From assembly GCA_030698695.1 (NCBI GenBank), contig JAUYMR010000042.1:3174-67173 (forward strand): 64,000 nt of DNA. Reading direction: 5' to 3'. Under the pieces are notes generated by a model. The model did not search any database and was not told where the DNA came from. It was given only the letters and a program-made list of their open reading frames with translations. This DNA is from a bacterium (lineage in GTDB: Bacteria > Patescibacteriota > Minisyncoccia > UBA6257 > WO2-44-18). Shown piece by piece: positions 3,669-64,000 of the stretch (within the stretch, counting starts at the first letter, position 1; each line of letters opens with the position of its first letter). The position numbers were made by a program, and so were the translations under genes.

Positions 3669-3744
3669 ACTCCTTTATCTCGTTTTGTTTTAAAACTTCT
3701 AAGATCAATCTATAACAAACAAAAAATAATTGCAATCTTTTTAA

Positions 3745-5678: not shown

Positions 5679-5852
5679 AATTAGTTTTCTTCACCGAGTC
5701 AGACTCGGTTTAGTCTAACTCACCCTGTTATGACAAGTCTCATAAACAAAGTAACACGTATGTGTACTATCAATAGTAGCATATTGATAATATATAATAA
5801 AATCCCCTTGTGGATAACTCCAAATTCACGCGATTAGTAATTTAAAATCACT

Positions 5853-6419
5853 CTACGCACTCAACACTACGAGGCCAACTATCAAGATGCCCACAAAATT
5901 CGCGATAAACGACAGCCATATGAAAGATTTTACGCTTAACTTTGAAATTCCCATCATGGCCAATCCAATCTCATCTGGCAACGGCGAGGCCACTAATAAA
6001 AATCCCAATATGGGCAATAGACGATGCCAAAACGCCATTTTCATAATATGCCTCCACCCCTTATCGTCGCCACCGTTAATTAAAGCCATAAAATCATCGG
6101 AAATGCGGTCTTTTACAAAACTGAATAATATAAAATCGCCCACCACAGAGCCAATGGCTCCAACAATCACGACCGGCCACAGACCAATATCCGCAACTAA
6201 GGCGGCTAGAGTCGCCACCGCCACACCAACCGTCAATACTGATGTAAAAAACATACCGGCTATAAAGATGGCCAAAAACTCAAACTCTTTTGATTGCGCC
6301 AATATCGCGTCAACAACTCCTAATTTCACCAAAAATATAGCCAACAAAACACCCACCAACAGGATAATAAAATTGCGCTGGAGATGACGCTTTATTTCGG
6401 CCGGACTAGTTTTCTGCAT
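5853..6419 (-). CDS. hypothetical polytopic membrane protein
   Basis: 188 aa with about 5 hydrophobic helices. Its 3' end overlaps the PPIase gene start by 14 nt. Confidence 0.5.
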   Translation of the reverse strand: MQKTSPAEIKRHLQRNFIILLVGVLLAIFLVKLGVVDAILAQSKEFEFLAIFIAGMFFTSVLTVGVAVATLAALVADIGLWPVVIVGAIGSVVGDFILFSFVKDRISDDFMALINGGDDKGWRHIMKMAFWHRLLPILGFLLVASPLPDEIGLAMMGISKLSVKSFIWLSFIANFVGILIVGLVVLSA

Positions 6420-43548: not shown

Positions 43549-46152
43549 CTACTTATTTCTATAAATCCATTTTCCAAATTCTATCAATGCGATATTGATA
43601 AAGCTGACTATCGCGACACCCCATAACCAACTTGGCGGCAAAGTAATCGTACCCAATAATCCTTGGAAAAATGGCACATAAACAGCCACAGCCATCAAGA
43701 CAAATCCTAACAATATGCTGAATATTATATATGGATTGGAAAATAGATTAATAGAGAAAATACTATGACTTAAACTGCGTACCGCCAAAATAGCAAACAA
43801 AGTATATGTTCCGAAAACCGTAAAAGTGAAGGTGTTAACCAATTTTTCTTCAAAGCCCAAATGAGTTAATCCGGCATAAATAATAAGCAACAAAACGCTG
43901 GTTAATACGCCGATGATCATTATTAAAAACTTCATTTCCGAATCTAATAGTCCCTTGGGAATCTTTGGCGGCTTCTGGCCTAAACGATCATGTCCGTCTT
44001 CAAATGCTAAAGCTATTCCGGGGAAACTATCAGTGAAAAAATTAACCCATAAAATCTGTAAAGGATTCAACGGCATTCCCAGCCCCAACGCCAAAGCCCC
44101 GCCTATCAAAATAACGGCGTCTAAAGAATCTGATAGTAGGTAGACAATTGCTTTACGAATATTGGCCAATATTCTCCGGCCTTCGTTGATGGCCTCTACA
44201 ATAGTTTCAAAATTATCATCAAGCAAAACCAAATCCGCCACATCTTTCGCCACGTCAGAACCAGAACCCATCCCGACTCCGATGTCCGCCTCTTTCAAGG
44301 TCGGCGCATCGTTGATTCCATCCCCCGTCATAGCCACCGTGGCGCCGCTAGCTTGATAAGCCTTGAGAATTCTTAATTTTCCTTGTGGGCTTATGCGAGA
44401 AACTATTTTTAAATTATCTAATTTTGATTTCAAAACCTCGTCACTCAAAGATTCTAATTCAGTGCCGTCAATCACTTGATCTGGGTTAATCACAAAACCA
44501 ATTTCTCTGGCTACTGATACAGCTGTCCCCATGTGATCACCGGTTATAATAACGACCTTAACTCCGGCGCTGGTGACGCGCTCCATGGCATCTTTGACTT
44601 CAGACCTCACCGGATCACGAAAAGAGATTGTCCCCAAAAAATCAGCTCCCTGAAAATTATTTCTATCGCTTAACGAAACCTTGCTCGTCAACTTCTTAAC
44701 TGCCACTGATAATACTCTGTCGCCACCATAAGCCATTTTATCAACTGCGGATAAAACTCTCTTTCTTTCTTCGGGCGTTAAATCAGCATATTTCAATATT
44801 ATCTCCGGCGCCCCGAATAGACTTAATAGATATCTATCATCGTTATTGTATTTAATGATTGACGCTGAAAATTTATTAGCTGAACTAAATGGCAAGTAAT
44901 CAACTACTTTTATATCTTTTTTTAGTTTGGGTAAAATAATATTTCTTCTAGCAGCCGCTTTGACAGCCGCTATCTCTAAAGGACGACCGATAATCTGCCA
45001 ATTGTCTGGAAGATCGTTGGGATTTTCTATAACCACGTCGCTATTAACAATGGCGAGTTCTATAATTTTATCGCTGATGTTTTCTCCTTTATCATGATCA
45101 CTAAAAACAGTTACGCGCGACAAATCCATTTTAGCCTGAGTTAAAGTTCCAGTTTTATCAGTTAACACGATGGATGTACTGCCCAACGTCTCGGCCGCCA
45201 ACAATTTTCTAACAATCCCCCTCTTGCCGGCTAAACGCTGAACACCTATCGCCAAAATCACCGTCAATACCACCGGCAAACCTTCGGGCACAGCCGAAAC
45301 CGCCATAGCCACCGCTATCAAAAACATATCAAAAACCGATTGCCCACTATAAACGCCCAAACCGAAAATAAGAGCTGTCAAGCCCAATAGAAAAAACCCT
45401 ATCCGCCAACTTAAACGCGCGACGCTTCCCTGTAGCGGAGTCTTTTCTCTCTCCGGCCTACCAACCAATAAAGCGATTTTTCCGATTTCGGTGTGCCGCC
45501 CAGTGGCCGTCACTACTGCATTGCCGAAACCCTGCACTGCTACTGTTCCGCTGAAAATCATTGATTGTTGGTCGGCTAACACAGTTTCAAAACTCATTGA
45601 TTCAACCGATTTAGGAACTGGCAAAGATTCACCGGTCAAAATAGATTGATCAACTTGTAAATCATTGGCGTAAATAATGCGCCCGTCAGCCGGTATTCTA
45701 TCTCCCTGTGATAAATGGATGATATCTCCAGGCACTAATTCAGTAACATCAACTTCTAATTCACGATTGTCGCGGAATACCCTAACGCGCTTTTCAATAT
45801 ATGTCCTCAAATGATCTAGGGCTTCTTCGGCTTTGTTTTCCTGATAGAAGCCAAGAACCGCGTTAACGAACGCCGCGGCTAAAATAAAAATTGTGTCTTT
45901 AAAGTCCTCTAAAAATAAAGTTATAGTGCCGGATATTAGAAGCAAAATAATAAAAGGGTTTTTAAATTGCCTCATAAAAATCTTTAATTTGGTAATTTTA
46001 CCCTTTTCTGGTAATTTATTTACACCAAAAAAGGACGAGCGCTGATTGACATCTTCGTGGGATAAACCGAAAGTGGTTGTCTCTAGCATATTCAAACACT
46101 CTTCCGCTGGTAGCGCCCAAAACGATCTCTTTAAAATTTCTTTGGTAATCAT
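43549..46152 (-). CDS. P-type ATPase, cation-transporting (Ca2+/Mg2+-type, P2)
   Basis: 'DKTGTLT' phosphorylation motif, 'TGDHMGTA', a 'GDGINDAP' hinge and 10 TM helices in 867 aa. Confidence 0.9.
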   Translation of the reverse strand: MITKEILKRSFWALPAEECLNMLETTTFGLSHEDVNQRSSFFGVNKLPEKGKITKLKIFMRQFKNPFIILLLISGTITLFLEDFKDTIFILAAAFVNAVLGFYQENKAEEALDHLRTYIEKRVRVFRDNRELEVDVTELVPGDIIHLSQGDRIPADGRIIYANDLQVDQSILTGESLPVPKSVESMSFETVLADQQSMIFSGTVAVQGFGNAVVTATGRHTEIGKIALLVGRPEREKTPLQGSVARLSWRIGFFLLGLTALIFGLGVYSGQSVFDMFLIAVAMAVSAVPEGLPVVLTVILAIGVQRLAGKRGIVRKLLAAETLGSTSIVLTDKTGTLTQAKMDLSRVTVFSDHDKGENISDKIIELAIVNSDVVIENPNDLPDNWQIIGRPLEIAAVKAAARRNIILPKLKKDIKVVDYLPFSSANKFSASIIKYNNDDRYLLSLFGAPEIILKYADLTPEERKRVLSAVDKMAYGGDRVLSVAVKKLTSKVSLSDRNNFQGADFLGTISFRDPVRSEVKDAMERVTSAGVKVVIITGDHMGTAVSVAREIGFVINPDQVIDGTELESLSDEVLKSKLDNLKIVSRISPQGKLRILKAYQASGATVAMTGDGINDAPTLKEADIGVGMGSGSDVAKDVADLVLLDDNFETIVEAINEGRRILANIRKAIVYLLSDSLDAVILIGGALALGLGMPLNPLQILWVNFFTDSFPGIALAFEDGHDRLGQKPPKIPKGLLDSEMKFLIMIIGVLTSVLLLIIYAGLTHLGFEEKLVNTFTFTVFGTYTLFAILAVRSLSHSIFSINLFSNPYIIFSILLGFVLMAVAVYVPFFQGLLGTITLPPSWLWGVAIVSFINIALIEFGKWIYRNK

Positions 46153-52000: not shown

Positions 52001-52963
52001 TTAATGCGCCATTCTTTTCTTAAACTCTTCCACCATCGGAACCGCTTCTGGTTCAACGTGATAGTTTTCGGCAAGATAGTAAGACGTCCAATCGGCTAGA
52101 GAAAGTGATGAAAATATTTTTTGCCAGATATTGACACCCCTGACATCAACTGATGTCACCGACAATCCCCTGTCTTGATACAATTTTTGCGTAATATGTT
52201 GTCTCTTTTTGATGTCGGCCGAATCCGTGTTGTCTTTAAGAAAAATGAAGGCAAATTGCTTGGCTAGGTTTTTAGTAACTCCTCGCGCGTCAAAACCAGT
52301 CATTTCATTGTGATTCAATTCCGGCCAAACGTTATAAAATGCCGGCGCCTTGCTGGTTTCATTGAATCTAACTTTCCAGTTAAGAGCTAGCGCCCTATTT
52401 TTATCTGAAGCATACACGACCGGTACGCGATTTTTTAATTTTCCAGCCAGATCTTTCCCTTCTCGTTCATAAACTTCCGGTCGTAAAGTTTTTGCTAATC
52501 TGGCCGTTTCTTTTATGGCTTTTTCCTCTTTCATTATTTTTAATAATGCCAACAAACTATAACCAACTGCTGATCTGGGCTGAATACCCGTTTCGGACAT
52601 CGCTACATAGGGTACAGAGTGTTTTTTGGCTAAAGATAACAATCTGCCACCGGAGGTTATAACCGCCATCGGCAATTTCTCTTTACGCGCCACTTGAAAA
52701 GAGCTAATAACCTCTTCGGTATTGCCAGAATAAGAACTTAAAATCACTAAACGACCGCCTCGTTTTAGTTGGGGCAAACCATAGTTCCGATGAATAATTA
52801 TGTTAATATCCGGCTTCCAAATCTTTAACAAATCCGCAACCAAGTTAGAACCCCCCATACCTACCACAATAAATCTCTCAAACTTTTTTAGCTTGGATCC
52901 ATTTTTAAGTTCTGGCTTGTAAGCAAATTGCTTATTAAAATTATTTATGACATCTCTTAACAT
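52001..52963 (-). CDS. pgi: bifunctional phosphoglucose/phosphomannose isomerase (SIS-domain, archaeal-type PGI/PMI)
   Basis: 'RFIVVGMGGSNLVADLL' SIS motif and a second SIS half, in about 320 aa. Confidence 0.75.
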   Translation of the reverse strand: MLRDVINNFNKQFAYKPELKNGSKLKKFERFIVVGMGGSNLVADLLKIWKPDINIIIHRNYGLPQLKRGGRLVILSSYSGNTEEVISSFQVARKEKLPMAVITSGGRLLSLAKKHSVPYVAMSETGIQPRSAVGYSLLALLKIMKEEKAIKETARLAKTLRPEVYEREGKDLAGKLKNRVPVVYASDKNRALALNWKVRFNETSKAPAFYNVWPELNHNEMTGFDARGVTKNLAKQFAFIFLKDNTDSADIKKRQHITQKLYQDRGLSVTSVDVRGVNIWQKIFSSLSLADWTSYYLAENYHVEPEAVPMVEEFKKRMAH

Positions 52964-53103
52964 ATTTTATGGTCGCGTATTCTGAATTTAGCGCGAACCC
53001 ATTTTGAGCGAAATTGCTGACGCAATTTCGCCAACCTTTCCGAAATCCGCTCGGGTGTGGCGGAAGGAGGGGGTTGGGGGGAGGAGTTCTGCCGCGCCCT
53101 CGC

Positions 53104-53123
53104 TTCGGAAAAATTCGCGCCGA
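53104..53123. repeat. left copy of 20-bp perfect inverted repeat
   Basis: ttcggaaaaattcgcgccga is the exact reverse complement of 54261-54280. Confidence 0.9.
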
Positions 53124-53199
53124 CAATTGCGAAAACAAATACAATTAAAGGATAGCTGAAAAAATTTGTTTTCGCAAAGTTTGTTCTTTGAAATTTTGA

Positions 53200-53236
53200 G
53201 AAAAGAAAAGGGCCTTGGATGTTTCCATCCAAGGCC
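53200..53236 (-). terminator. rho-independent terminator of the SDR gene
   Basis: An 11-bp stem ggccttggatg/catccaaggcc with loop tttc is followed by a U-rich run on the minus strand. Confidence 0.75.
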
Positions 53237-53252
53237 CGGCGAAAACGGTGAA

Positions 53253-53948
53253 TCACCCAATCTGCTTGTCCACAACCTCCTCTCTTTGCAGTGCACGGAC
53301 GACTTCCTCGGCAACTGTGTTGATGGGGATCAGCTTCGGCGGCTTGGGTCCCCCGTGATGAAACGACGTATCCACTGCCGCAGGTGCTACGCGATGCACC
53401 CTGATCTTCCGTTCGGCGATCATGGGGTCGTGCCGCATGCCGTCCACCAACCAATCCTCGGCACTGATCACACCCGCGTGATAGTGCGCCTGTAGGAACG
53501 GTGGGAACTGACCCTTGAGACGAGTAATCGCTGACGAGATGAAGACGAAACAGCCGCCGTTCTCAAGATTCGCCGCCATGCACTGGAAGACGTTGAGTAC
53601 ACCGATCTGGTGCATGTCGATCTCGTTTCTGTACTTGTCGAGCGAAAGTTGCGAGAGCGGATGCTTGATCGCATCCGAGAGCCCGTTCGGCGGACAGTGT
53701 CCCACCGCGTAGACTACGCCATCAAGCTTGTAGAGTTCAGAGAGATGACTGGCATACGCCTCTATCGTCTTCCGATCAGCGACATTCTCGATAACATCCA
53801 CGAGCGCACCGCTTCGCAACAACCCCTCCCTGACTTCTTGATGATGTTCTCGCACTGAAGCGATGACGCGGTGGCCAGCGACGAGCAACTGACGCACCAC
53901 CTCTTGGCCGATTGAGCCAGCCGCACCGAAAACCAGATAGGTCTTCAC
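53253..53948 (-). CDS. SDR-family NAD(P)-dependent oxidoreductase (high-GC, probably horizontally acquired)
   Basis: 'VKTYLVFGAAGSIGQEVVRQL' Rossmann motif and the 'ISSAITRLK' region. A GTG start at 53948 is preceded by AAGGAGA with a 5-nt spacer. The longer ORF to 54035 is unlikely. Confidence 0.75.
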   Translation of the reverse strand: MKTYLVFGAAGSIGQEVVRQLLVAGHRVIASVREHHQEVREGLLRSGALVDVIENVADRKTIEAYASHLSELYKLDGVVYAVGHCPPNGLSDAIKHPLSQLSLDKYRNEIDMHQIGVLNVFQCMAANLENGGCFVFISSAITRLKGQFPPFLQAHYHAGVISAEDWLVDGMRHDPMIAERKIRVHRVAPAAVDTSFHHGGPKPPKLIPINTVAEEVVRALQREEVVDKQIG

Positions 53949-54260
53949 AGCTTTCTCCTTTCGTTCCGTTTGTGATGATGCGTATTCCTTGCCCCGCACC
54001 AATCGGGCAATGTCCACTCGAAATGAGCAGCGCAATAGACATCTTATTCAAAAAGACAACCATTGCGCTACTCACTACACCGCATTTTTTATCAAAGAGC
54101 TTGCAAAAGATACAATAGAGTGTACCTCAACTGTTGTTAATAGCATAGCAGATTACTATCAAGATGTCAAGGTCGAAATGGCGGTTAAACAAAAAACAGA
54201 ACCCTTGAGAAATTCTACTCAAAAATCCTATGAAATTATCTTATCAATTACTGAAAGTTA

Positions 54261-54280
54261 TCGGCGCGAATTTTTCCGAA
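54261..54280. repeat. right copy of 20-bp perfect inverted repeat
   Basis: tcggcgcgaatttttccgaa. Confidence 0.9.
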
Positions 54281-54293
54281 CCGTGGGGATTTG

Positions 54294-54318
54294 CCGCGTC
54301 CCGCCTTGCGGGACGCGG
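54294..54318. repeat. 11-bp perfect GC-rich stem-loop adjacent to IR-R
   Basis: ccgcgtcccgc-ctt-gcgggacgcgg. Confidence 0.7.
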
Positions 54319-54376
54319 AGATGCCGAGCGGCGAAGCCGCGAGGCAACCTCTCCCGAAAATTTGACTTGTCTTGAA

Positions 54377-54450
54377 TGGTCGGAGAGCCGGGAATCGAAC
54401 CCGAACCTCGTGCTCCCAAAGCACGTATACTACCACTATACTACTCTCCG
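54377..54450 (-). tRNA. tRNA-Pro (TGG), CCA encoded
   Basis: rc = CGGAGAGTAGTATAGTGGTAGTATACGTGCTTTGGGAGCACGAGGTTCGGGTTCGATTCCCGGCTCTCCGACCA, with G37. Confidence 0.88.
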
Positions 54451-54561
54451 ATACTACTTATTATATCATTCTGGCGCAGCGTTCTTAAATCAGTCGTCGA
54501 GCCCTTCCTCCGTCAGGATAAACTCCGCGAGGCGAACCAAAACCGCTTGATTTTTCCTTTC

Positions 54562-54636
54562 TGGTGCCCCCGCGAGGAATCGAACCTCGATCCTCTCCTT
54601 AGAAGGGAGATGTTCTATCCGTTGAACTACGGGGAC
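54562..54636 (-). tRNA. tRNA-Arg (TCT), CCA encoded
   Basis: rc = GTCCCCGTAGTTCAACGGATAGAACATCTCCCTTCTAAGGAGAGGATCGAGGTTCGATTCCTCGCGGGGGCACCA. Confidence 0.88.
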
Positions 54637-54692
54637 ATATAAAGAAATGATTGGTAATGTGCCTATGATACCACTATAACTTAAAATAAAAC

Positions 54693-54716
54693 ACCCCTCC
54701 AATCAAGTGAGGGGCG
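54693..54716 (-). terminator. hairpin downstream of the zinc-ribbon gene
   Basis: Stem cccctc..gagggg with U-rich sequence after it on the minus strand. Confidence 0.4.
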
Positions 54717-54729
54717 CTTTATTTAAGAT

Positions 54730-54900
54730 TTATTTAGCAGAAGGCAAAATCTTATACATTGTAGTGCCGCAAACCTCGCATTTGCCGGTATAAGCTCTGC
54801 CGGTCTTGCCGCCTTTCTTTTGCATTACCACCTCTTTGCCATCAACAATCTTACGATCCTTTTCTTTGCATTTAACGCAATATCCTTTTACGTCTTCCAT
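54730..54900 (-). CDS. small zinc-ribbon protein (DUF5679-like, C-x2-C...C-x2-C)
   Basis: MEDVKGYCVKCKEKDRKIVDGKEVVMQKKGGKTGRAYTGKCEVCGTTMYKILPSAK. The ATG at 54900 is preferred over the upstream in-frame ATG. Confidence 0.55.
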   Translation of the reverse strand: MEDVKGYCVKCKEKDRKIVDGKEVVMQKKGGKTGRAYTGKCEVCGTTMYKILPSAK

Positions 54901-55081
54901 AATTTTAAAAGTTAATATAATTTGGTTGACCTTTATATAAGGAATCCTAGCATATTTAAACCTATTTATCCACAAGGCGGTATATCAAGGTAACATTTGC
55001 CCACTTTGGCGCATTATATTCGTGACGCGCGCCTCGGGCTTTGATTATAGTGTTAATAGTGGTATTTTACTGATAAATCTT

Positions 55082-55645
55082 ATGTCTCTAAGTCAAAAAG
55101 AAGAAAAATCGCTTATACTCAAAATTAAAAATGGAGATCAAGGAGCCTTGTCGCTACTTTGGGACAATTTAACGCCTAAACTTTTTGGTTATCTCATAAA
55201 CACCACTCGCAACAAAACTTTAGCTGAGGATTTATTGCAAAATACTTGGCTCAAAGCTATTAACGCCCTGCCAGGTTTTGAACCGAGAAATATCAGTATC
55301 GCCGCCTGGCTGTTTGCTATCGCCAAAAATGAATGTCGCATGCATTGGAGAAAATCAGGAAGAGAAACCTTGTTTGATCCCGCGAAAGACGAAGAAACGC
55401 CAATAAAACACGATGAAGTTAATAATGTCGGTAATCTGGAAAATAAAATATTAATAGAACAAATTCTTGGGCTCCTCTCTGAAGACGATCGCGAAATACT
55501 CCGCCTACGCTATATTGCCGATCTGCCATTAAACAAAATAGCCAATGTACTAAAAATTAACTTTGTGGCGGTACGCGTTCGTATGCACAGAGCCCTAGGT
55601 CGAGCTCGCGGAATAATAGATAAAAATCATTATGAACAAATATAA
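55082..55645 (+). CDS. ECF-type RNA polymerase sigma factor (sigma-70 family)
   Basis: Region 2 (..LLQNTWLKAI..) and region 4 (..EILRLRYIADLPLNKIANVL..), overlapping the downstream gene by 14 nt. Confidence 0.85.
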   Translation: MSLSQKEEKSLILKIKNGDQGALSLLWDNLTPKLFGYLINTTRNKTLAEDLLQNTWLKAINALPGFEPRNISIAAWLFAIAKNECRMHWRKSGRETLFDPAKDEETPIKHDEVNNVGNLENKILIEQILGLLSEDDREILRLRYIADLPLNKIANVLKINFVAVRVRMHRALGRARGIIDKNHYEQI

Positions 55646-56864
55646 TTTACACAAAATCCTAACTTCTTGGGGTAAATCTCAACGGCAACTCCCAGACAAT
55701 AACGAATCGCTGAAAAAAAGCTTACTGGCCAACTTGCCAAATTCGCCTACCATTAAAGACACTGGACTTATCCATCGCGCTCCCTGGTTATCTATGTCCC
55801 TAATAGGTTTGGCGGTGCTTGTCCTAATCATTACGCCATCAAGTATTAATAGAATGAACCCGCCCATATCTGGCGCGCCTTACATGGATAATTACGGAGA
55901 TGACAGCCGCGACTCAGCATCGCCAATAACTTCAACTGCCATAAACAGCCCCGAAACCAAAACATCTTCCGCCGGAAAATTTATGGAGAATTCTATGTCC
56001 CCCAACGTCCAAAACGCTAAGCCATCTTATGTCCTTCCCGACATTTATCCCGAACCCCCTTACTACAATGACCCAGCTCCGATTAATGATACTCGTGAAT
56101 TTTTAAAAACTAGTTATAACGCTACCATTCGTACTAGAAAAGTTAACGAGATATCTCAACATATCCAGATTGCCGTACGTGGAGTTGGTGGGCGCATAGA
56201 TGGCTTCACTAGCTCAAATAAAAATGGCTATATAAATTTTGCCATACCGGCTGATAAATTAGATTTCTTTGTAGCAGATATAAAAAACCTGGTTCCCAAA
56301 AAGTTTTTTGTAGAGACGACTATGGTAGAAAACCTTTTGCCACAGAAACAATCTATTGAACGCCAACAGGAACAAATCTATAAAATGCTGGCGACTCTGA
56401 ACTCTAATCGCGATCAATTAATAATCACTCACAAAAATTACGCGGCCTCAATACAAAGACAACTTGATGATATCGCGATAGAAACCGATGCTCTAAAATC
56501 CGTAATCACCGATGATTTAATCCGCCAGACAGAGATTGCGGCTCGTCTGCAAGAATTATCAATCTTGAAAAGCTCACTTAAATCACAGCTAACTAATGAA
56601 AATTATAGTTACAACAAAAAGCTGGCTTCTTTAGATTCACAAATCAAAAATTATCAAGACAGCTTAGAATACAACTATAAACAGGATCAAAAACTAATAG
56701 ACAACGTGGCTACTGTTCGCGGCACGATCTATATCAATTGGATTGGCTACTGGGAAATAATAGGACTTTATACTCCTTCTTATTGGCCGTCCATAGTTTT
56801 AGTTGCCGCCGCCATCATTGCCTACATCAACTATCGCCGCAAATCCAGAAATATAATTCCTTAA
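55632..56864 (+). CDS. putative anti-sigma factor: cytoplasmic N-terminus, one TM helix, DUF4349-like extracytoplasmic domain, C-terminal TM
   Basis: It is translationally coupled to the sigma gene. A TM helix lies at about aa 55-75. A DUF4349-like pattern (..TSYNATIRTRKVNEISQHIQIAVRGVGGRIDGFTS..) is followed by a coiled coil and a terminal TM. Confidence 0.55.
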   Translation: MNKYNLHKILTSWGKSQRQLPDNNESLKKSLLANLPNSPTIKDTGLIHRAPWLSMSLIGLAVLVLIITPSSINRMNPPISGAPYMDNYGDDSRDSASPITSTAINSPETKTSSAGKFMENSMSPNVQNAKPSYVLPDIYPEPPYYNDPAPINDTREFLKTSYNATIRTRKVNEISQHIQIAVRGVGGRIDGFTSSNKNGYINFAIPADKLDFFVADIKNLVPKKFFVETTMVENLLPQKQSIERQQEQIYKMLATLNSNRDQLIITHKNYAASIQRQLDDIAIETDALKSVITDDLIRQTEIAARLQELSILKSSLKSQLTNENYSYNKKLASLDSQIKNYQDSLEYNYKQDQKLIDNVATVRGTIYINWIGYWEIIGLYTPSYWPSIVLVAAAIIAYINYRRKSRNIIP

Positions 56865-56883
56865 ATAATTGATAGGGCCTCAT

Positions 56884-56917
56884 AAAAACATCCCCATCGG
56901 CTAACGGGGATGTTTTT
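56884..56917. terminator. bidirectional rho-independent terminator
   Basis: aaaaa-catcccc-atcggctaac-ggggatg-ttttt. Confidence 0.8.
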
Positions 56918-56954
56918 ATGATACGCGCGTGACGCGCTTAAAAACTACCAATTA

Positions 56955-57266
56955 TTAAACCGCTATCGCCAACGCAACAACCACTAGAAAGATGATTAAC
57001 CAAGCTAACGTCAGTCCTAATAAAATCAATGCTTCTTTTTTTAGGCCATTGGAATAAAGACTAATCGGCTTTCCTAAAACCAAAAATCCGGTAACGACAG
57101 CTGATACGATAAACAACAACAACACAAACACCGGCGCCAGAAAACTATCTTTCGGTTCACCAAAAATATTCTGACTATTAAAACCCAACCAAGCCACGCC
57201 AGATACGTAAATAAAAACTCCGGCGCCGCTAACCAGACTTCGTAAAATATAGGTTGTTTTGGTCAT
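56955..57266 (-). CDS. small membrane protein (3 TM), hypothetical
   Basis: 103 aa, hydrophobic. Confidence 0.4.
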   Translation of the reverse strand: MTKTTYILRSLVSGAGVFIYVSGVAWLGFNSQNIFGEPKDSFLAPVFVLLLFIVSAVVTGFLVLGKPISLYSNGLKKEALILLGLTLAWLIIFLVVVALAIAV

Positions 57267-57455
57267 AATTATTCGTACTCCTTATCTATTTGTAGAACTA
57301 CAAATTTTATCCCTTTTGTTTCCAAAAATTGAAACGGCATCTTATGGGTTGAATCGGACTTTTTCAAAATGCCTTGGCGGGACTTGGCGGAAATACCAGT
57401 CCAAGCCCGCGCCTTTGGCGCGGGCGAGGTCAATCTTTCTTCAAATTCGGAATTG

Positions 57456-57526
57456 TGGACCTAACCGGAATCGGACCGGTGTCTCGCCCATGCGAAGGGC
57501 GCGTCTTACCACTGGACCATAGGCCC
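57456..57526 (-). tRNA. tRNA-Ala (CGC), G3:U70 identity pair, no encoded CCA
   Basis: rc = GGGCCTATGGTCCAGTGGTAAGACGCGCCCTTCGCATGGGCGAGACACCGGTCCGATTCCGGTTAGGTCCA. Confidence 0.8.
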
Positions 57527-58566
57527 TATAAATGTTCCGTTGCTTTAAGATAAAACATGAACTCCAATATTATAAGCACAAACCATCCAAGCTGTAAAAC
57601 AAAAAACACAGCTATCTGAATAAATTCCAGTCGCTCATTGCGAGATAAGCTGAATTTTTCGGACACAATATTATAGATATCTTCCAAAGATTCAAATTTG
57701 TTCCTAATAACCGATCGCCATTCTTCCAATTTGAATTTTTTAGCTATTAAATCGTAAAGCCTCGCTAAATACCAATCGCCTATCAATTTTATATCCCGCT
57801 CAAAAGACTCAAACTCAGTAATAGATTGCGTGCGAATTTTAATAATTTCTTGAAAGCTGTTGGCTAGCTCCTTTTGTCCAAAAAAGAATAATTTTTTCTC
57901 TGTTTTACTACTAGAAAGCCGAGCCACCTTCTTGAGGCGATTATCTAATTCAGAATCCAAAATTCGGTAACGCAATAGTTGCAAATTGGCTGTTTGAAAA
58001 AGATCAATAGCACTTTCCACGTCACCAACGGGATCAAAAATAAAAGACCCGTCCCAATCAACTATTATTAAATCGTCTTTGGCGTATTTTAATTGCTTGG
58101 AAAGAGTATATTCAATCTCGTTCTCGGCCAAAGTCATTTTCTCGGATTTCAAAAAGCTAGCTATGGCGGCTTTTTTGTCAGCGCTTAAAAATCGCTCCGG
58201 ATCGCCCTGATAATCATAGACGATGGCTAACGCGTATTCTTCGCTCATCTCCGGCCTACTGCCACGATCTTTTAATATTTTATGACAAGCGTCAATCAGC
58301 TCCTCACGCAACTTGAAAGTTTCTTGAGAAAAAACGTCATCAGTTTCCACGACTGTTTCGGCCAATAAAATATCCGGCGCGTACGATCTCACCAAAAATT
58401 TAACATCATTACCGCCTATTTTAAGACTAGTCTCAGAAACTGCAAATTGTTTAGGCAATTCGTAATATTGAGGAGCGCTTTGAGCGGCTTTAGCTTCAAC
58501 AATTTTATCCCCCTTTTTGGGCCGATTAACTCCGGCTATGACAAAAGCCGCTATTTTGTATTTCAT
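57526..58566 (-). CDS. hypothetical protein with C-terminal TM helix
   Basis: 346 aa with no recognisable motif. Its stop codon abuts the tRNA-Ala 5' end. Confidence 0.4.
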   Translation of the reverse strand: MKYKIAAFVIAGVNRPKKGDKIVEAKAAQSAPQYYELPKQFAVSETSLKIGGNDVKFLVRSYAPDILLAETVVETDDVFSQETFKLREELIDACHKILKDRGSRPEMSEEYALAIVYDYQGDPERFLSADKKAAIASFLKSEKMTLAENEIEYTLSKQLKYAKDDLIIVDWDGSFIFDPVGDVESAIDLFQTANLQLLRYRILDSELDNRLKKVARLSSSKTEKKLFFFGQKELANSFQEIIKIRTQSITEFESFERDIKLIGDWYLARLYDLIAKKFKLEEWRSVIRNKFESLEDIYNIVSEKFSLSRNERLEFIQIAVFFVLQLGWFVLIILEFMFYLKATEHL

Positions 58567-58619
58567 ATCTAAATCCTACCATTTCGCTAAATGTTTGGCA
58601 TCCGGCTCTCACGCAACCG

Positions 58620-59465
58620 TTAACGTCTCAAAACAAGCTTTATAAGTATGCTGATTATAAAAAATATCGTGGCGACGCTGATTATTACTGGTCCCAAAGT
58701 AAGCTGTGTCGCTGAAGCGACTAAAAAACCCACCACTACCGACAACACAGCCATAAATGAAGATAACCATAAATCCGCGTTCAAACCAGTGGCCAAATTT
58801 TTGGCCACCGCGGCCGGAACAATAACCAATGCGCCCATCAACAACACACCGAGAAATTTTAATCCCAAAAGAACGTTTATAGAAAAAAGTAATAAGAAAA
58901 TAAAATTAATTCTGCTAGTTTTTAGCCCTATGGTCCTCGCCAAATCCTGTGACACCATTGATAAAACTATTTTTTCTCTAATCATAAGCAGGGTAAAACC
59001 AATGACTAAAGTCACAATCAAGCCGACTAACCCCTCCATAACTGACGGGGTAGCAATATCGCCAAACAACACCTCTTCCAACTCATGACTGGGCGTTATC
59101 AAACTACCGATAGCTAGCGATGCCGAAAAAACCACCCCGATAACGGTCTCGGTAGAAATTTTTGTTTGACTCTCAATCGCCCAAATGATAATTGCCCCCA
59201 GAACCAAAGCAACTAAACCGCCCCACAATGGATTAATGTTCAAAAGTATGGCCAAACCCAATCCCGGCAAGGCAATATGAGATATGGCGTCTGAAGCCAA
59301 AGCCATGCGCTTCATCAACGCGAAAGACCCCACCAAACCGGAGACGGCGGCGACAGATATCATCAAAACTATATTCAATATGTCGGCTAAATTAGTTGGC
59401 ATGTTTTTAATGGTTATCTCTATCGGGACGCGGGTGATGATGATGATATAAAACACGCTCTCCAT
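58620..59465 (-). CDS. znuB: metal (Zn/Mn) ABC transporter permease (ABC-3 family)
   Basis: 8 TM helices with the ABC-3 signature region. It overlaps the ATPase gene. Confidence 0.8.
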   Translation of the reverse strand: MESVFYIIIITRVPIEITIKNMPTNLADILNIVLMISVAAVSGLVGSFALMKRMALASDAISHIALPGLGLAILLNINPLWGGLVALVLGAIIIWAIESQTKISTETVIGVVFSASLAIGSLITPSHELEEVLFGDIATPSVMEGLVGLIVTLVIGFTLLMIREKIVLSMVSQDLARTIGLKTSRINFIFLLLFSINVLLGLKFLGVLLMGALVIVPAAVAKNLATGLNADLWLSSFMAVLSVVVGFLVASATQLTLGPVIISVATIFFIISILIKLVLRR

Positions 59466-60126
59466 ATAATTTAGTTAGCACATCTGTATTCAATGTTTTC
59501 TGCGGCTCACCGAAGCAAAGCATAGATTTATTGATACACAGAACTTGGGTGGCATAACGATAGACCAGATTGAGATCGTGCGATATAAACATCAAAGTCA
59601 ACTCTTTGTGATCTTGCAATTCGTGCAAAGTTTCATAAATTAATTCTTCTCGGGGCGAATCTACGCCGGAGGTCGGCTCATCAAAAAGCAGAACATTAGT
59701 ATCGCCTATCAAAGCCAGGGCTATAAGACCTCTTTGAATTATGCCTGCCGCTAAATTAACCAATCTCTTATCAAGATCTTTTTTATCTACGTGCGCCAGA
59801 GATATAACTTCATCAATCACATCCGGTGACAATTTCAAAATACCTATCTTGAGCATTAATAAATCTCTCAAAGTTAAAGTTAGTTGTGGATCTAAATCTA
59901 ATCGTTGTGGCACATAGCCGAATCTAACGCCATCAGACCACTCAATATCACCACTAAAAGGAGTGGCTCCTATCAAAGCTTTAAATAATACCGTTTTACC
60001 GGCTCCATTGGGACCGATAACAGCCAAAGCCTGATTCCGGCTCAGTTCAAAATTTACATTTTCCAAGACCAAATGATCGCCAAAACGAACATTTAGGTTT
60101 TTGACTTTTAAGATTGGTTCTGCCAT
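59407..60126 (-). CDS. znuC: metal ABC transporter ATP-binding protein with His-rich C-terminal tail
   Basis: Walker A 'GPNGAGKT', signature 'LSGGQ'-like region, Walker B, and the tail 'YHHHHPRPDRDNH'. Confidence 0.88.
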   Translation of the reverse strand: MAEPILKVKNLNVRFGDHLVLENVNFELSRNQALAVIGPNGAGKTVLFKALIGATPFSGDIEWSDGVRFGYVPQRLDLDPQLTLTLRDLLMLKIGILKLSPDVIDEVISLAHVDKKDLDKRLVNLAAGIIQRGLIALALIGDTNVLLFDEPTSGVDSPREELIYETLHELQDHKELTLMFISHDLNLVYRYATQVLCINKSMLCFGEPQKTLNTDVLTKLYGERVLYHHHHPRPDRDNH

Positions 60127-60183
60127 AAATAAAGTCTACAAGGTTACCGATTTTTGTTATATTAATAATAACACTAGCTTTCG

Positions 60184-60208
60184 GGAACATAAAGCCCACT
60201 TATTCGTT
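60184..60208 (+). promoter_or_regulatory. ECF-type promoter GGAAC-N16-CGTT abutting the sigma-factor start codon
   Basis: gGGAACataaagcccacttattCGTTatatATG, with the -10 only 4 nt from the ATG at 60213. Confidence 0.5.
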
Positions 60209-60212
60209 ATAT

Positions 60213-60761
60213 ATGATAGCAGACGAGGAAAATCTAATAAAACAAGCTCAAGGTGGCGATTCCGGCTCATTTGGAGAGCTTTACCACCATTATTCGCCAG
60301 CTATCTACCGCTTTGTACTGCTTAAGGTTAATCAACGCCAGATGGCGGAAGATTTAACCCATGATGTGTTTACAAACGCCTGGCAAAGTATTGGCCGCTA
60401 TACCCATCAGGGCTTTCCTTTTTCCAGTTGGCTATATCAGATAGCTCGCAATCGGGTTATAGATCATTACCGCACTCACAAGAAACAAACTAGCATAGAT
60501 TTATTGGATGAAGATGTTCTAAAAGAGCATGGCTTGGAAGAAATCAAATTAGATAATTCTTTGGATGTAAAGCGTGTTCGTAAGGCCATTACCGAGTTAA
60601 GCTCGGAACAGCAAGATGTGGTGTTGATGAGATTTATGGAAGATATGTCCCATCAAGAAATAGCCGCCGCGCTAGATAAAAGCGAAGGCGCCGTAAGACT
60701 GCTTCAACATCGCGCCATCAATAAACTCAAAAATTTATTCTCTAATGACAATGGAAGATAG
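60213..60761 (+). CDS. ECF-type RNA polymerase sigma factor
   Basis: Region 2 '..YRFVLLKVNQRQMAEDLTHDVFTNAW..' and region 4 '..QQDVVLMRFMEDMSHQEIAAAL..'. Confidence 0.88.
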   Translation: MIADEENLIKQAQGGDSGSFGELYHHYSPAIYRFVLLKVNQRQMAEDLTHDVFTNAWQSIGRYTHQGFPFSSWLYQIARNRVIDHYRTHKKQTSIDLLDEDVLKEHGLEEIKLDNSLDVKRVRKAITELSSEQQDVVLMRFMEDMSHQEIAAALDKSEGAVRLLQHRAINKLKNLFSNDNGR

Positions 60762-61146
60762 ACTAAACAAAGCATTGAAGCCGTTCAAAGCGATCAAACC
60801 AAGCGCTGATTTTATGCGCTATTCTAGGGCGGAAATTTTGGCTACCAAACAAAAATTTTTCTCCGCTCGCCGAAGTTGGCATTGGAACTTTTGGAGCAGT
60901 GTTAAATTCGCCAGCTCGTTAACCTTGGCAACTTTATTGGTTTTAATTGTAATTGGCGGCCTATCTTATTTCAATTTGAATTTAGCTCCGACTCTATTGA
61001 CCGAGTTGGATAAAGAAAGTCTTTTGAGAGAAGCCAATTCTTTAGATTTTCAGATTCATCTAAAAGAACTTAAATACTACGACGATTCCGCTAAAGAAGT
61101 GGCGGCATTATTAGACCAAGTAACTGAAAATGAAACAAATTTATAG
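60745..61146 (+). CDS. putative membrane anti-sigma factor
   Basis: 133 aa with one central TM helix. It overlaps the sigma gene by 17 nt and the downstream gene by 17 nt. Confidence 0.45.
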   Translation: MTMEDRLNKALKPFKAIKPSADFMRYSRAEILATKQKFFSARRSWHWNFWSSVKFASSLTLATLLVLIVIGGLSYFNLNLAPTLLTELDKESLLREANSLDFQIHLKELKYYDDSAKEVAALLDQVTENETNL

Positions 61147-61900
61147 TTCCAAACTTCGTATTTTGGGCATATTAATAATCGGGGTGTTTCTAATGCTCCC
61201 CTATTTTAAAGTTAACGCCCAGTCAGAAGCATTAAAATCCGCCCTTAAAGAAGTTACTGATATAAAAGACAGCAATATTGAAAGTCCGGAAAGTCGCGTA
61301 TCGGCTATACTAAAAATAATTGATCTTTCAAGATTGGAAGTTGAGGATCTTATCAAAAAACTATCTTCTTTAGAGAATCTGGACAAAAACTATAGCGATC
61401 TACGGGATAGTTTCTTGTCTATTCTTAGCGATTATCTAATTTATTTAGACAACGCGGAGATTGAAGCCAATAATCCCGAGCTATCTCCCGATGATTTAAA
61501 ATTATTAGCCAACAATCTCAAACAATGGCGAGACGCTAAATACAACAACACACTCAAAAAAACGGTTAACTTTATCTGGGTATTAAGAGAGGCCGACTTG
61601 TTAGATACCGCCCATAATAGATTGGATAAAATTTCTACTGATCTGAAAAAAGCTAAAAATTCTCGCTTCATTAAAATTGCCGATCTTATGCCACCCTTAG
61701 AAAAAGCCACTACCCTATTGAAAGAGGCGAAGATGTCAAGCAAATTAGCTCACGAATTATTGTTCGCTACCACCACTCCAGAAAATTATAAATCTTCAAC
61801 TTTAGACGACGTCGTTGAAGAAACTCTTAGTAAAATAAAATCTGCTTATCAAGAATTTTTCAAAATGAATTCCTTAATAAAAGAAATGCTCGGCCTGTAG
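61130..61900 (+). CDS. secreted coiled-coil protein, third gene of the ECF operon
   Basis: Signal peptide '..ILGILIIGVFLMLPYFKVNAQS', then a helical body. Confidence 0.45.
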   Translation: MKQIYSSKLRILGILIIGVFLMLPYFKVNAQSEALKSALKEVTDIKDSNIESPESRVSAILKIIDLSRLEVEDLIKKLSSLENLDKNYSDLRDSFLSILSDYLIYLDNAEIEANNPELSPDDLKLLANNLKQWRDAKYNNTLKKTVNFIWVLREADLLDTAHNRLDKISTDLKKAKNSRFIKIADLMPPLEKATTLLKEAKMSSKLAHELLFATTTPENYKSSTLDDVVEETLSKIKSAYQEFFKMNSLIKEMLGL

Positions 61901-61911
61901 TCGGCCGATCA

Positions 61912-61975
61912 GTTGGTTAGTTGCCTAGTTACTTAGTTTTAAAACCAAGTAACCAAGTAACCAACTAACTCAGAA
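61912..61975. terminator. long imperfect AT-rich palindrome between convergent genes
   Basis: cagttggttagttgcctagttacttagtttt / aaaaccaagtaaccaagtaaccaactaactcag. Confidence 0.45.
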
Positions 61976-61982
61976 CTGGTCT

Positions 61983-62258
61983 CTATTTCACTGCCTCCTT
62001 CAAGGCCTTAGCGGCTTTGAATTTCGGCTTGATAGAAGCCTTGATTTGAATTTTTTCTCCAGTTTTTGGATTGACGCCCATACGAGCTGCGCTTTTAGCA
62101 ACGCGAAAAGTGCCAAAGCCAGCTATAGCGACCTCCTCACCGCGACCCAAAGATTTGGTAATGGTGTCAAAAACAGCTTCTACCGCTTCCTGAGATTGTT
62201 TTTTAGTACCTAGATTGGCGGCCTTCATAGCGGCGGCCATTAAATCATCTTTTTTCAT
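61983..62258 (-). CDS. hup: DNA-binding protein HU
   Basis: '..AIAGFGTFRVAKSAARMGVNPKTGEKIQIKASIKPKFKAAKALK' is the HU/IHF fold in 91 aa. Confidence 0.9.
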   Translation of the reverse strand: MKKDDLMAAAMKAANLGTKKQSQEAVEAVFDTITKSLGRGEEVAIAGFGTFRVAKSAARMGVNPKTGEKIQIKASIKPKFKAAKALKEAVK

Positions 62259-62476
62259 AGATTAGCGTAACGTAAAATGTTGATCGAGACATGGGATAAT
62301 TTCCATACATGTCACTCATCACATTAAACATTTGACTATTTATCCCGACCTTTTCAATAAATCTTATTATACTATCAGCTATTATTCTATGTCCATTTTT
62401 CAATGTCTAATGAGCCCTGTGTTTAATGTATTCCTATCTACCGCGCATCACTATATTCTCACAGACATCTATTACG

Positions 62477-63967
62477 CTATTTAGCATATTCTACAGCCCT
62501 CATCTCTCTAATAACATTGACTTTAATTTCGCCGGGATATTTTAATTCCGATTGTATCTTAGTCGCGATATTTTTAGCTAATTGCAAAGCGCCAAAGTCA
62601 TCAATTTTCTCCGGTGTGACGAATATTCTGATTTCTCGTCCAGCGGAAAGAGCGTAAGCATTTTTCACGCCCTCAAAACCAATGGCTATTTTTTCCAGGT
62701 CTTGCAAGCGTTTAAGATAGTTTTCTATTGAATCGCGACGCGCTCCCGGACGAGCCGCGGAAATAACATCGGCTGCGGCCACAATGTAAGATTCCGGAGT
62801 AGCATATGGATATTCTTCATGATGCGATTGCATGGCTTCTATAACATTTTGATTGATGCCGTATTTACTTAAAATCTTACGCCCCAATTCAACATGAGTG
62901 CCCTCAACTTCATGACTAATGGCCTTGCCAATATCGTGAAGAAGCGCCCCCTTCTTGGTTACTTCAACATTGGCCCCTAATTCCGAAGCTATCATGCCGG
63001 AAATGTGAGTCATCTCAATAGAATGAGTTAATACATTTTGGCCATAACTGGTTCTAAAATGCAGTCGTCCCAATAATTGAATAATTTCCTTTGGTAAATC
63101 TACTATACCGACTTCAAAAGCGGCCTGCTCCCCTATTTCATACATGCGCTTATTCATATCCTGCCTAGCTTCTTCAACTTTCTCCTCAATTTTAGCCGGT
63201 TGGAATCTTCCGTCCTTGACCAATTTTTCCAAAGCCAATTTAGCGATCTCTCTTCGTAATGGATCAAAAGAAGAAATAACCACGTTTTCCGGACTTTCAT
63301 CAACAATAATCTCTACTCCAGCCGCGCGCTCTAAAGCTCGTATATTGCGTCCCTCGCGACCGATAATTTTGCCCTTAAGATCCTCATTGGGCAAATTAAA
63401 AACACTAGTGGTTAATTCCGACACATTTGATCGCGCATAACGTTGGATAGCTGTGGTAATTATATCTAAACTTTTTTTCTCCACCTCTTCCCTCTTTTCC
63501 TTTTCCAATCTTTGCACGGCATTAACTAAATCATTTTTATAACTCTCTTCCACTTCTTTCAATAATTTTTTCTTAGCATCGTCAACGCTTAAATTGGCTA
63601 TCTTCTCTAAATCGGCCAGAGCTTTTTTCTGCAATTGCTCTACTTCGGACTTAACGGCGCCAACTCTGACTTCCGATTGCTCTAATTTACTCTCACGCTC
63701 CAACAAAGTTTGAGAACGCTTCTCGGTCATTTCTTCTTTTTTAAGAATCCTCTCTTCTAATTTTTCCAACTGGGCCTTATGCTCTCGCTCCTCCTTGCGA
63801 GTATTTTCAACCAAAGTCGCCGCCTCATCTTTGGCTTTTTGAATAATAATATTAGCCTGATTTTCGGCCGATGCCGCTCTCTTAGAAGCGAGCGATTGAC
63901 GAATAAAATAACCTGCTACGATACCCAAAACTAGAGCCCCCGCGGCCCACGGAATTATTGCTGACAT
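62477..63967 (-). CDS. rny: ribonuclease Y
   Basis: N-terminal TM helix, a coiled coil, a KH domain and an HD domain (..LLHDIGKA..), 496 aa. Confidence 0.92.
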   Translation of the reverse strand: MSAIIPWAAGALVLGIVAGYFIRQSLASKRAASAENQANIIIQKAKDEAATLVENTRKEEREHKAQLEKLEERILKKEEMTEKRSQTLLERESKLEQSEVRVGAVKSEVEQLQKKALADLEKIANLSVDDAKKKLLKEVEESYKNDLVNAVQRLEKEKREEVEKKSLDIITTAIQRYARSNVSELTTSVFNLPNEDLKGKIIGREGRNIRALERAAGVEIIVDESPENVVISSFDPLRREIAKLALEKLVKDGRFQPAKIEEKVEEARQDMNKRMYEIGEQAAFEVGIVDLPKEIIQLLGRLHFRTSYGQNVLTHSIEMTHISGMIASELGANVEVTKKGALLHDIGKAISHEVEGTHVELGRKILSKYGINQNVIEAMQSHHEEYPYATPESYIVAAADVISAARPGARRDSIENYLKRLQDLEKIAIGFEGVKNAYALSAGREIRIFVTPEKIDDFGALQLAKNIATKIQSELKYPGEIKVNVIREMRAVEYAK

Positions 63968-64000
63968 ATGATATGTTCGCTAAATTCTTCATTTTTAGAA

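Follow-up and report, generated by a model that had tools for sequence, protein, structure and literature searches.

Within a 64,000-nucleotide (nt) window of a Patescibacteriota genome of the WO2-44-18 lineage (contig JAUYMR010000042.1 of GenBank assembly GCA_030698695.1), the spacer between pgi and a tRNA-Pro gene holds a short, GC-rich segment that encodes a short-chain dehydrogenase/reductase (SDR). We interpret this segment, at positions 52970-54376, as one copy of a modular family of cargo cassettes that spreads horizontally among Patescibacteria, and from which the accompanying large serine recombinase (LSR) module has been deleted (probability about 0.7). That it is a stranded member of an LSR-associated cassette family is a conclusion we hold with still more confidence. 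The segment is foreign in composition, belongs to a family of similar loci, ends in a remnant of an LSR gene at a hybrid junction, and follows a design in which variable cargo is placed in a constant frame.

An initial annotation of this DNA had described a perfect 20-bp inverted repeat bracketing the SDR gene, and had held that such a pair is not expected by chance. Both copies are exact: TTCGGAAAAATTCGCGCCGA lies at 53104-53123 on the forward strand and at 54261-54280 on the reverse strand, and the window holds no third match even when up to 3 mismatches are allowed. A chance origin was ruled out, with a chance expectation of 0.02 and two matches in 0 of 100 shuffles. Inverted pairing reaches 30 nt at 90% complementarity (53097-53126 with 54258-54287). 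The GC-rich profile from pgi to tRNA-Pro, with an AT-rich part inside, was likewise borne out, the GC content being 0.557 in 52964-53103, 0.571 in the SDR gene, 0.382 in 53952-54260, and 0.635 in 54281-54376, compared with 0.40 for the window. Two further measures mark the segment as foreign. The GC content at third codon positions (GC3) of the SDR gene is 0.659 versus 0.381 ± 0.052 for 54 open reading frames (ORFs) of the window, and the tetranucleotide correlation between the insert interior and the host is 0.25, while equal-sized host pieces give 0.85 ± 0.09 with a minimum of 0.50.

The position of the repeats, which had been taken for the termini of the element, required correction. GC-rich DNA lies outside both repeats and the foreign segment fills the spacer, so the repeats are not the segment ends; in intact relatives, they are the innermost 20 nt of inverted ends of ~155 nt, and of all internal sites of the family they are conserved best. 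Element DNA continues beyond the 20-mer for 134 conserved nucleotides on the left (block a) and for 96 on the right (block b). The insert is the entire spacer between pgi and tRNA-Pro, 52970-54376, and it does adjoin a tRNA-Pro/tRNA-Arg pair as originally noted, abutting the 3' end of tRNA-Pro(TGG). A 7-bp direct repeat at both edges, ATGGTCG, was considered as a target duplication and rejected, since both blocks, a and b, have this sequence as their conserved terminus (as does the tRNA end). A duplicated tRNA end was also rejected, since no tRNA 3' half was recognizable in block a on inspection.

To place the element in context, the exact 20-mer was scanned for in one genome per GTDB species and in JGI and ENA metagenomes. 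It was present in 22 species genomes (~1 expected by chance), 16 of them with conserved blocks around it, and in 48 metagenome contigs, 38 with conserved blocks. The further copies that the initial annotation had suggested looking for thus exist: ~54 loci, mostly in diverse Patescibacteria, carry the 20-mer and ~250 nt around it at 82-96% identity. Hosts with an explicit lineage are Taylor-, Azam-, Vogel-, Lipton-, Falkow-, or Yanofskybacteria or are given as "Patescibacteria group", with locus GC contents ranging from 0.39 to 0.56, and the remaining species-genome hosts are third-party annotation (TPA) assemblies labelled "uncultured Candidatus Saccharibacteria". Groundwater sites at Hainich, at Rifle, and in Northern California were repeatedly represented in the matches. 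Within the window, 52964-53217 is 82-91% identical to related loci L010, L014, L015, L016, and L020, and 54270-54376 is 96% identical to positions 417-518 of L016. As the host PGI has no homologue above 59% identity, non-coding identity this high suggests recent transfer. The 20-mer had no match in IMG/VR, and the sequence running from block a through the 20-mer into the adjoining A-end had none among PLSDB plasmids; on these grounds, a phage or plasmid origin was rejected. No description of these elements was found in the searchable literature library, and the wider cassette family appears to be undescribed.

Exact copies of the 20-mer were also seen in high-GC contigs from outside the candidate phyla radiation (CPR) (L018, L028, L036, L055, and L069; L025, L049, and L065). 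These have common flanks of their own (ttcgcaca..., cagtgcaa...) and no cassette blocks, and they appear to be conserved sequences of unrelated kinds.

Intact members share a fixed anatomy. Each inverted end consists of block a (~135 nt, with a hairpin), which has the terminus TGGTCGCGTATTCTGAATTTAGCGCGAACCC or one of two variants, and of the 20-mer, here termed site I (I' for the right copy of the window). Between the ends follow, in order, a B- or C-end, a promoter of the form TTGACx-17-TATxxT, a leader, one or two cargo ORFs, a terminator, and an A-end. The B- and C-ends are terminator-like hairpins with a T-run that would block outside transcription, and the hairpin and T-run of the A-end would likewise terminate transcription arriving from outside. 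Block a of the window is 82-95% identical to its counterparts in L010, L015, L016, L017, L026, and L078, among others, and its outer limit is sharp, abutting unrelated host DNA in different loci. The A-end recurs in >30 loci at 84-96% identity and has a DNA fold of -12.7 kcal/mol (z = -2.4), and the B-end is 81-88% identical in L008, L011, L012, L026, and L029. Exact 20-mer pairs within a cassette are always convergent and lie 1.2-1.9 kb apart. In ~14 loci, it is the promoter side of the cassette that is turned toward the 3' end of a tRNA gene (Pro, Val, Arg, Leu, Gly, or Lys), and in 1 locus it is the A side; other block-a termini directly follow gene terminators. No target-site duplication was found at L026, L032, L037, or L038, and in L032 and L037 the two block-a copies differ while site I is identical.

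The cargo within this frame is variable. At least 20 unrelated ORF families were found, with Pfam families differing between cargos; they include SDR, AIR-synthase-like, SPFH/Band 7, AAA_33 kinase, response-regulator-like, and phosphoribosyltransferase-like proteins, along with many unknowns. Cargo GC content is 0.49-0.67, above that of the locus wherever the cargo ORF is complete, and the ORF ends 32-132 nt from the A-end (at most 90 nt in all loci but one). Expression signals, by comparison, are shared between unrelated cargos: L011, L015, and L029 have one terminator in common, as well as one leader that is distinct from that of the window, and the leader motif of the window recurs upstream of unrelated cargo ORFs in L009, L016 (twice), L043, L048, and L061. 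A counterpart of the window's promoter-like site directly follows the B- or C-end in L011, L015, L016, and L026.

Several individual cassettes showed additional features. In L016, a core resembling a type III hammerhead, CUGAUGAGUCCGAAAGGACGAAA, lies between two cargo ORFs at 1774-1816 on the forward strand; it was seen in this locus only, and its Rfam match (28.6 bits, E = 0.0022) is below the gathering score of 48.5. In L029, an insertion of ~1.5 kb within the cassette (~985-2460) has the inverted ends GTAACCTGCCACACCTC and GAGGTGTGGCGGGTTAC and one long ORF, which by eye resembles an IS66-type transposase, and a deletion at 2530-2540 fuses two cassettes, B-end to A-end.

The SDR gene of the window conforms to the family frame. 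Its own terminator and GTG start (Table 1) and an AAGGAG ribosome-binding site (53955-53960) agree with the initial description. Expression probably starts at the gene's own promoter, with insulation at either end. The encoded protein is identical to database protein P0001, and its named homologues are all from Patescibacteria, the best at 80% identity. Comparison with NCBIfam and PDB assigned it to no specific family, every NCBIfam match being far under its cut-off. By eye, the nucleotide-binding motif reads GAAGSIG and the sequence at the YxxxK position YHAGV; the canonical YxxxK was not seen. The inverted repeats were rejected as companions of the SDR gene itself, as none occur at the SDR homologues in L002 and L003. 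The L003 homologue (71% identical) directly follows tRNA-Pro(GGG) (L003 3951-4024 and 4900-4960), and after it a degenerate piece similar to the block-a hairpin loop was observed.

The conserved blocks could in principle be structured-RNA genes or insulators that are selected beside tRNA genes and do not move, with the SDR gene merely lying between two of them. Compensatory double changes, found in 4 of the 14 pairs of the block-a stem in an alignment of 31 sequences, would fit such a role, as would the terminal terminator of every unit and the location of units downstream of tRNA genes, with which they would be co-transcribed. Against this, searches of 52800-54800 with Rfam gave nothing at E ≤ 1 except tRNAs and weak chance matches, and only tRNAs reached the gathering score in 20 related loci. 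Wobble pairs showed no strand bias (12 versus 9) and the hairpin loop is inverted in some copies, for which reasons an RNA made from one strand was rejected. Furthermore, DNA identity of 82-96% across lineages with PGI ~58% identical fits recent transfer rather than vertical conservation, the limits to host DNA are sharp, and the flanking genes vary by locus. We therefore regard immobile RNA genes or insulators as very improbable. The inverted loops, C-rich instead of G-rich, with stem and flanks in place, form a flip/flop arrangement, and were seen at L013 (~3880-3915 and ~5290-5330), L059 (~5670-5720), and L079 (3870-3925).

The intact arrangement of a cassette with an LSR was seen in L026, where a complete cassette (553-2066) is followed by an LSR gene starting at 2267 and by tRNA-Pro(CGG). 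The encoded protein has the Resolvase, Recombinase, and Zn_ribbon_recom domains. Its gene lies between inverted arms of ~150 nt (2061-2210 and 3637-3787), whose outer tips both read CGACCA; on the tRNA side this tip coincides with the 3' terminus of the tRNA, and on the far side it doubles as the end of block a. Each arm contains, at ~100 nt from the tip, TTCGGAAAAAT, which is identical to the first 11 nt of site I, after which the sequences diverge. In all, LSR homologues or remnants adjoin cassettes in six loci (L016, L026, L032, L038, L047, and L054). To avoid circularity, three more loci (L078, L079, and L081) were picked by LSR protein similarity alone, raising the number with an LSR beside cassettes or cargo modules to 9. 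In all three, the LSR lies between arms of 144-158 nt that are 96-99% identical and overlap tRNA-Pro, and the adjoining segment is bounded by a-type blocks or long inverted repeats. The block a of L078 is 95% identical to that of the window and abuts the LSR arm. The neighbor in L079 is a restriction-modification module bounded by 192-nt repeats that have an a-type terminus and hairpin; this repeat shares another 12-mer with the LSR arm at about equal distance from the tip. The motif common to cassette end and arm is located 95-122 nt from the tip in L026 and 105-121 nt from it in L079. The tRNA-Pro(TGG)/tRNA-Arg(TCT) pair of the window recurs in L081 next to an intact recombinase module, with a two-gene module between 321-nt perfect repeats beside it. 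In L026, L078, L079, and L081, the final 3-6 nt of tRNA-Pro directly adjoin the LSR module, and no duplications were seen there. Contiguous junctions of block b to block a occur in L016, L026, L043, and L078. Intact LSR genes are present in L026, L038, L078, L079, and L081; the LSR is but a distant relative of those studied so far, being 23-30% identical to phage integrases, with SPbeta SprA/YokA as its best PDB match (E = 5e-9).

The LSR ORFs have an unusual 3' end. In L026 (2267-3895), L078 (320-1894), L079 (7001-8605), and L081 (7001-8656), no stop codon lies inside the module itself, and the ORF continues through the inverted arm into or through the antisense strand of tRNA-Pro, so that the last 25-30 LSR codons derive from the host tRNA gene. 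In the left flank of the L026 cassette (515-540), a 15-nt copy, agccctcacgcaccc, of the anticodon-arm region of tRNA-Pro(CGG) was observed beside a degenerate block-b end, 3.3 kb away from that tRNA.

The right end of the window insert derives from such a module. In a tblastn comparison, residues 470-532 of the L026 LSR, its C-terminus, matched 54269-54457 on the forward strand at 70% identity, corresponding to the last ~63 codons, and the window ORF at 54230-54550 (+) is a remnant of the LSR reading frame. The initial statement that no transposase or integrase is present stands insofar as there is no working recombinase; it needs qualifying because the right end is a leftover arm with the 3' end of an LSR gene. 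The right repeat itself is a hybrid. Compared with L026, its inner 20 nt match the cassette site at 17 of 20 positions and the arm site at 2 of 20, whereas the outer 45 nt match the arm site at 40 of 45 and the cassette site at 14 of 45, and the switch between the two parents falls inside their common 11-nt core. The same hybrid junction is carried by L029. In L026, the cassette I' site and the arm site are in direct orientation, with the right block a, the distal arm, and the LSR gene between them. The block b remnant and the clean hybrid in the right repeat indicate that the recombinase module was deleted. L015 and L039 show further deletion, with only block b left, as in the window and L029. 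A decay series exists, leading from an intact LSR (L026, L038, and L078) by way of an N-truncated LSR (L047) to block b only (the window, L029, and L015/L039).

A possible history of the window copy is as follows. An island would have inserted next to the tRNA-Pro(TGG) 3' terminus, at a point 6 nt upstream of pgi. Crossover within the 11-nt core between the cassette I' site and the tRNA-proximal arm site would then have led to loss of the right block a, the distal arm, and the LSR gene, leaving a cassette-I'/arm hybrid, block b, and tRNA-Pro, which is exactly the sequence of the window. The opposite direction would fit this junction equally well, the window then being an unoccupied product. 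The element would now be immobile unless an LSR were supplied in trans.

The LSR may be the enzyme that acts on the cassettes, and the 11-nt core may be its crossover site. Recombination by the LSR at this core is favored because LSR genes repeatedly adjoin cassettes, because cassette ends and LSR arms share their termini and the core, because the hybrid junction is clean, because site I stays identical where block-a copies differ (L032 and L037), and because the cassette interior is apparently inverted between L054 and L068. A number of points weigh against this interpretation. LSR action on site I is suggested by adjacency and by a hybrid junction of a single type, whose reciprocal was not seen, and the same product could arise from enzyme-free recombination across 11 nt of microhomology. 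The deletion could then stem from microhomology, and the inversion between L054 and L068 from homologous recombination of the long ends. Within the 64-kb window, no LSR was found beyond the remnant. The best PGI homologue is 58% identical and has other neighbors, and there is no close relative to show the empty site. Cassettes are found at many different tRNAs and after gene terminators, and we know of no classical phage-type LSR integrase with so broad a target choice. The 20-mer is absent from the cargo modules of L079 and L081, from which it follows that site I is specific to a subfamily. Finally, the hairpins of the window's block a (three G·T pairs; DNA fold z = -1.5) and B-end (z = -0.3) are weak, so that the window copy may be inert; block b, in turn, folds at -25.8 kcal/mol (z = -3.35). 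On balance, we put LSR action at the 11-nt core at slightly less than an even chance.

Alternatively, another enzyme, for instance a transposase acting on the long inverted ends, might move the cassettes. The LSR would then only share their landing places, namely tRNA-Pro ends and CGACCA-like termini, and the hybrid would be a microhomology deletion. Block-a termini do start with TGG or TGTG, recalling the TG...CA ends of DDE transposons, cassettes with no LSR in the fetched flank lie at many tRNAs and after terminators, and the L079 and L081 modules lack the 20-mer. However, the four loci inspected for target-site duplications (L026, L032, L037, and L038) had none, and DDE-type transposition was rejected on this account despite the TG-type termini. 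In addition, no transposase gene recurs beside the cassettes, while the LSR recurs in 9 loci; the terminus CGACCA/TGGTCG is common to cassette ends and LSR arms; and two diverged lineages, those of L026 and L079, place their shared end/arm motif at a similar distance from the tip. We consider mobilization by another enzyme unlikely.

A different role for the repeats would be that of an invertible-DNA switch, in which the SDR segment flips as a form of phase variation. The repeats are perfect and inverted, and the contigs of L054 and L068 provide a candidate case: they are 99-99.7% identical and have the same LSR-side flank, block a, and site I, yet one has the A-end on the inner side where the other has the C-end, and an interior piece is oppositely oriented. 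Flipping would nevertheless leave expression unchanged, as the cargo has its own promoter and terminators at both ends. A free switch would also give a more even split than the bias of the promoter side toward the tRNA described above, and no invertase is encoded in the window. A phase-variation switch is, in our estimate, improbable.

We also considered whether the segment might be an assembly chimera or a contaminant joined to the host contig across the repeat. Blocks a and I are repetitive in these communities, and a Logan contig (L001, from SRR13727534) that matches 53130-54542 at 100% ends at 53130, just inside the left repeat; loci L004, L005, L011, and L017 also stop at the repeat. A left end that is repeated within the community would be expected to cause such a stop. 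The same independently assembled contig reproduces the right junction, joining the SDR gene, I', block b, tRNA-Pro, and the next spacer, and the order of tRNA-Pro, block b, cargo gene, and block a is found again in L015 and L039. The two flanks of the insert belong to one genome: the right flank (54451-64000) correlates with left-hand chunks at 0.91-0.97 in tetranucleotide composition, the same range as left-hand chunks among themselves. A chimeric or contaminant origin is thus scarcely credible.

Table 1. Features of the cassette and its borders in the window.
Feature	Position	Strand	Remarks
Block a, outer part of the cassette's long inverted end	52970-53103	+	Terminus TGGTCGCGTATTCTGAATTTAGCGCGAACCC; 6 nt from the pgi start codon (52961-52963)
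Hairpin in block a	53053-53099	+	Arms GGGTGTGGCGGAA and TTCTGCCGCGCCC, G-rich loop
Site I, left 20-mer	53104-53123	+	TTCGGAAAAATTCGCGCCGA; first 11 nt are the core common to recombinase arms
A-end, inner end on cargo 3' side	53124-53217	+	14-bp hairpin (53127-53140 / 53164-53177), then T-run
Intrinsic terminator of the SDR gene	53210-53237	-	12-bp stem; DNA conserved with the SDR homologue in L002
SDR cargo gene	53253-53948	-	231 aa; GTG start at 53948; Pfam adh_short, 3.6e-14
5' leader motif	53965-54027	-	GCTNCTCATNTCGAG..TGRTGCGGGG..ACGCATCA; hairpin TGGTGCG/CGCATCA
Promoter-like site upstream of the cargo gene	54142-54170	-	TTGACA-17-TATGCT
B-end, inner end on promoter side	54187-54260	-	Terminator-like hairpin with T-run at 54231-54196
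Site I', right 20-mer, hybrid site	54261-54280	-	Cassette-type inside; recombinase-arm type beyond the 11-nt core ATTTTTCCGAA
Block b, recombinase-module remnant	54281-54376	+	tRNA-proximal inverted arm and last LSR codons; two GC-rich hairpins
tRNA-Pro(TGG)	54377-54450	-	3' end CGACCA (54377-54382) is the start point of block b
tRNA-Arg(TCT)	54562-54636	-	Next to tRNA-Pro(TGG)

Around the insert, no promoter-like site was found in the 250 nt upstream of pgi. With the element end only 6 nt upstream, expression of pgi must rely on sequence in block a or on read-through. In L076 (Nomurabacteria, PGI 58% identical), two tRNA-Ser genes come after pgi, and then, at the contig end, a Zn_ribbon_recom protein (4976-5937), a further case of a recombinase next to tRNA genes. 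Elsewhere in the window, milder outliers in composition were noted: the ORFs at 5853-6419 and 58620-59465 have a GC3 of 0.49 (>2 SD above the window mean), and a 450-nt stretch at 45150-45600 reaches a GC content of up to 0.49.

The cassettes can be compared with several known kinds of element. The initial annotation had proposed a non-autonomous, decayed element or one similar to a miniature inverted-repeat transposable element (MITE). The former holds, with a passenger gene inside, and the latter does not. MITEs are non-coding and shorter than ~600 bp, whereas the window element measures 1.4 kb and has an intact gene of 231 aa with a promoter and a terminator. The 20-30-nt repeat is internal instead of terminal, the target-site duplication expected of a MITE was not seen, and the partner is a serine recombinase.

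Mobile insertion cassettes (MICs) consist of passenger genes between inverted ends derived from insertion sequences (ISs), without a transposase. By analogy, the element would function most like a MIC, paired with an LSR element instead of an IS. Both are small non-autonomous units with inverted ends and few passenger genes, which lack an enzyme of their own and have autonomous relatives elsewhere; the window copy has its passenger between inverted ends without a transposase, one of these ends being complete and the other represented by its 20-mer. The term MIC occurs, for example, in the abstract of PMC5444012. Differences lie in the ends, which here are ~155 nt long with a hairpin, in the absence of target-site duplications, and in the LSR taking the place of a DDE transposase. 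Moreover, the cargo is set in a conserved frame of promoter, leader, and terminator, and the arms of the autonomous partner are different, with only the terminus and the 11-nt core in common. No IS with block-a ends was found.

Among LSR elements, Tn4451 with TnpX, Tn5397 with TndX, and the phage LSR integrases provide the comparison. Resolvase, Recombinase, and zinc-ribbon domains, inverted ends, and a specific insertion sequence without target duplication are common features, and site-specific insertion without duplication was found in the related loci L026, L078, L079, and L081. In contrast to those elements, the module here is minimal (a gene and near-perfect arms of ~150 nt), its ORF lacks a stop of its own, cargo resides in separate neighboring modules bounded by inverted repeats, and the window copy has no LSR gene.

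As in integrons, many unrelated single-gene cargos occupy one constant recombination frame, and where modules adjoin, the junction is a long imperfect palindrome whose outer edges carry conserved core sites. Unlike integron cassettes, these units have no IntI tyrosine recombinase and, on sequence inspection, no attC R/L boxes, they have their own promoter and terminators, and their bounding sites are inverted rather than direct. The pdif modules of Acinetobacter plasmids hold cargo between inversely oriented 28-bp XerC/XerD sites. They resemble the cassettes in carrying discrete cargo between short inverted recombination sites with the recombinase encoded elsewhere, whereas site I lacks the 11-6-11 layout of dif on inspection, and the present modules are chromosomal and tRNA-linked, with sites inside long inverted ends and a serine recombinase as partner. 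We know of no dif site in Patescibacteria. Location and composition are those of tRNA-targeted islands, with the tRNA 3' end abutted, foreign DNA, and a recombinase remnant beside the tRNA. However, the insert is only 1.4 kb and lacks a tyrosine integrase, and the tRNA end is repeated over 6-7 nt, which belong to the conserved termini of the modules.

With more reserve than for LSR action at the core, we propose that Patescibacteria hold an integron-like cassette system based on a serine recombinase. In such a system, small, insulated expression modules, framed by long inverted ends with hairpins and filled with unrelated ORFs, would be chained to a minimal LSR module at tRNA-Pro and exchanged, inverted, or deleted by the LSR at a short core, TTCGGAAAAAT in the present subfamily, with the LSR gene completed by the antisense strand of the tRNA; the window would represent a stranded cassette.

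For the host of the window, the SDR is an accessory gene gained by transfer, and the insertion displaced the sequence formerly upstream of pgi. GC-rich spacers beside tRNA genes in such genomes may be cassette ends or recombinase remnants instead of regulatory DNA. Patescibacteria have tiny genomes, few recognized mobile elements, and almost no genetic tools. The family offers candidates for such tools, namely a native promoter, a leader, terminators, and putative recombination sites, to which a compact LSR with a defined chromosomal landing site (the tRNA-Pro 3' end) may be added. A cassette family that is ~90% identical across classes, with a related module that carries a restriction-modification system, represents active gene flow among CPR bacteria.

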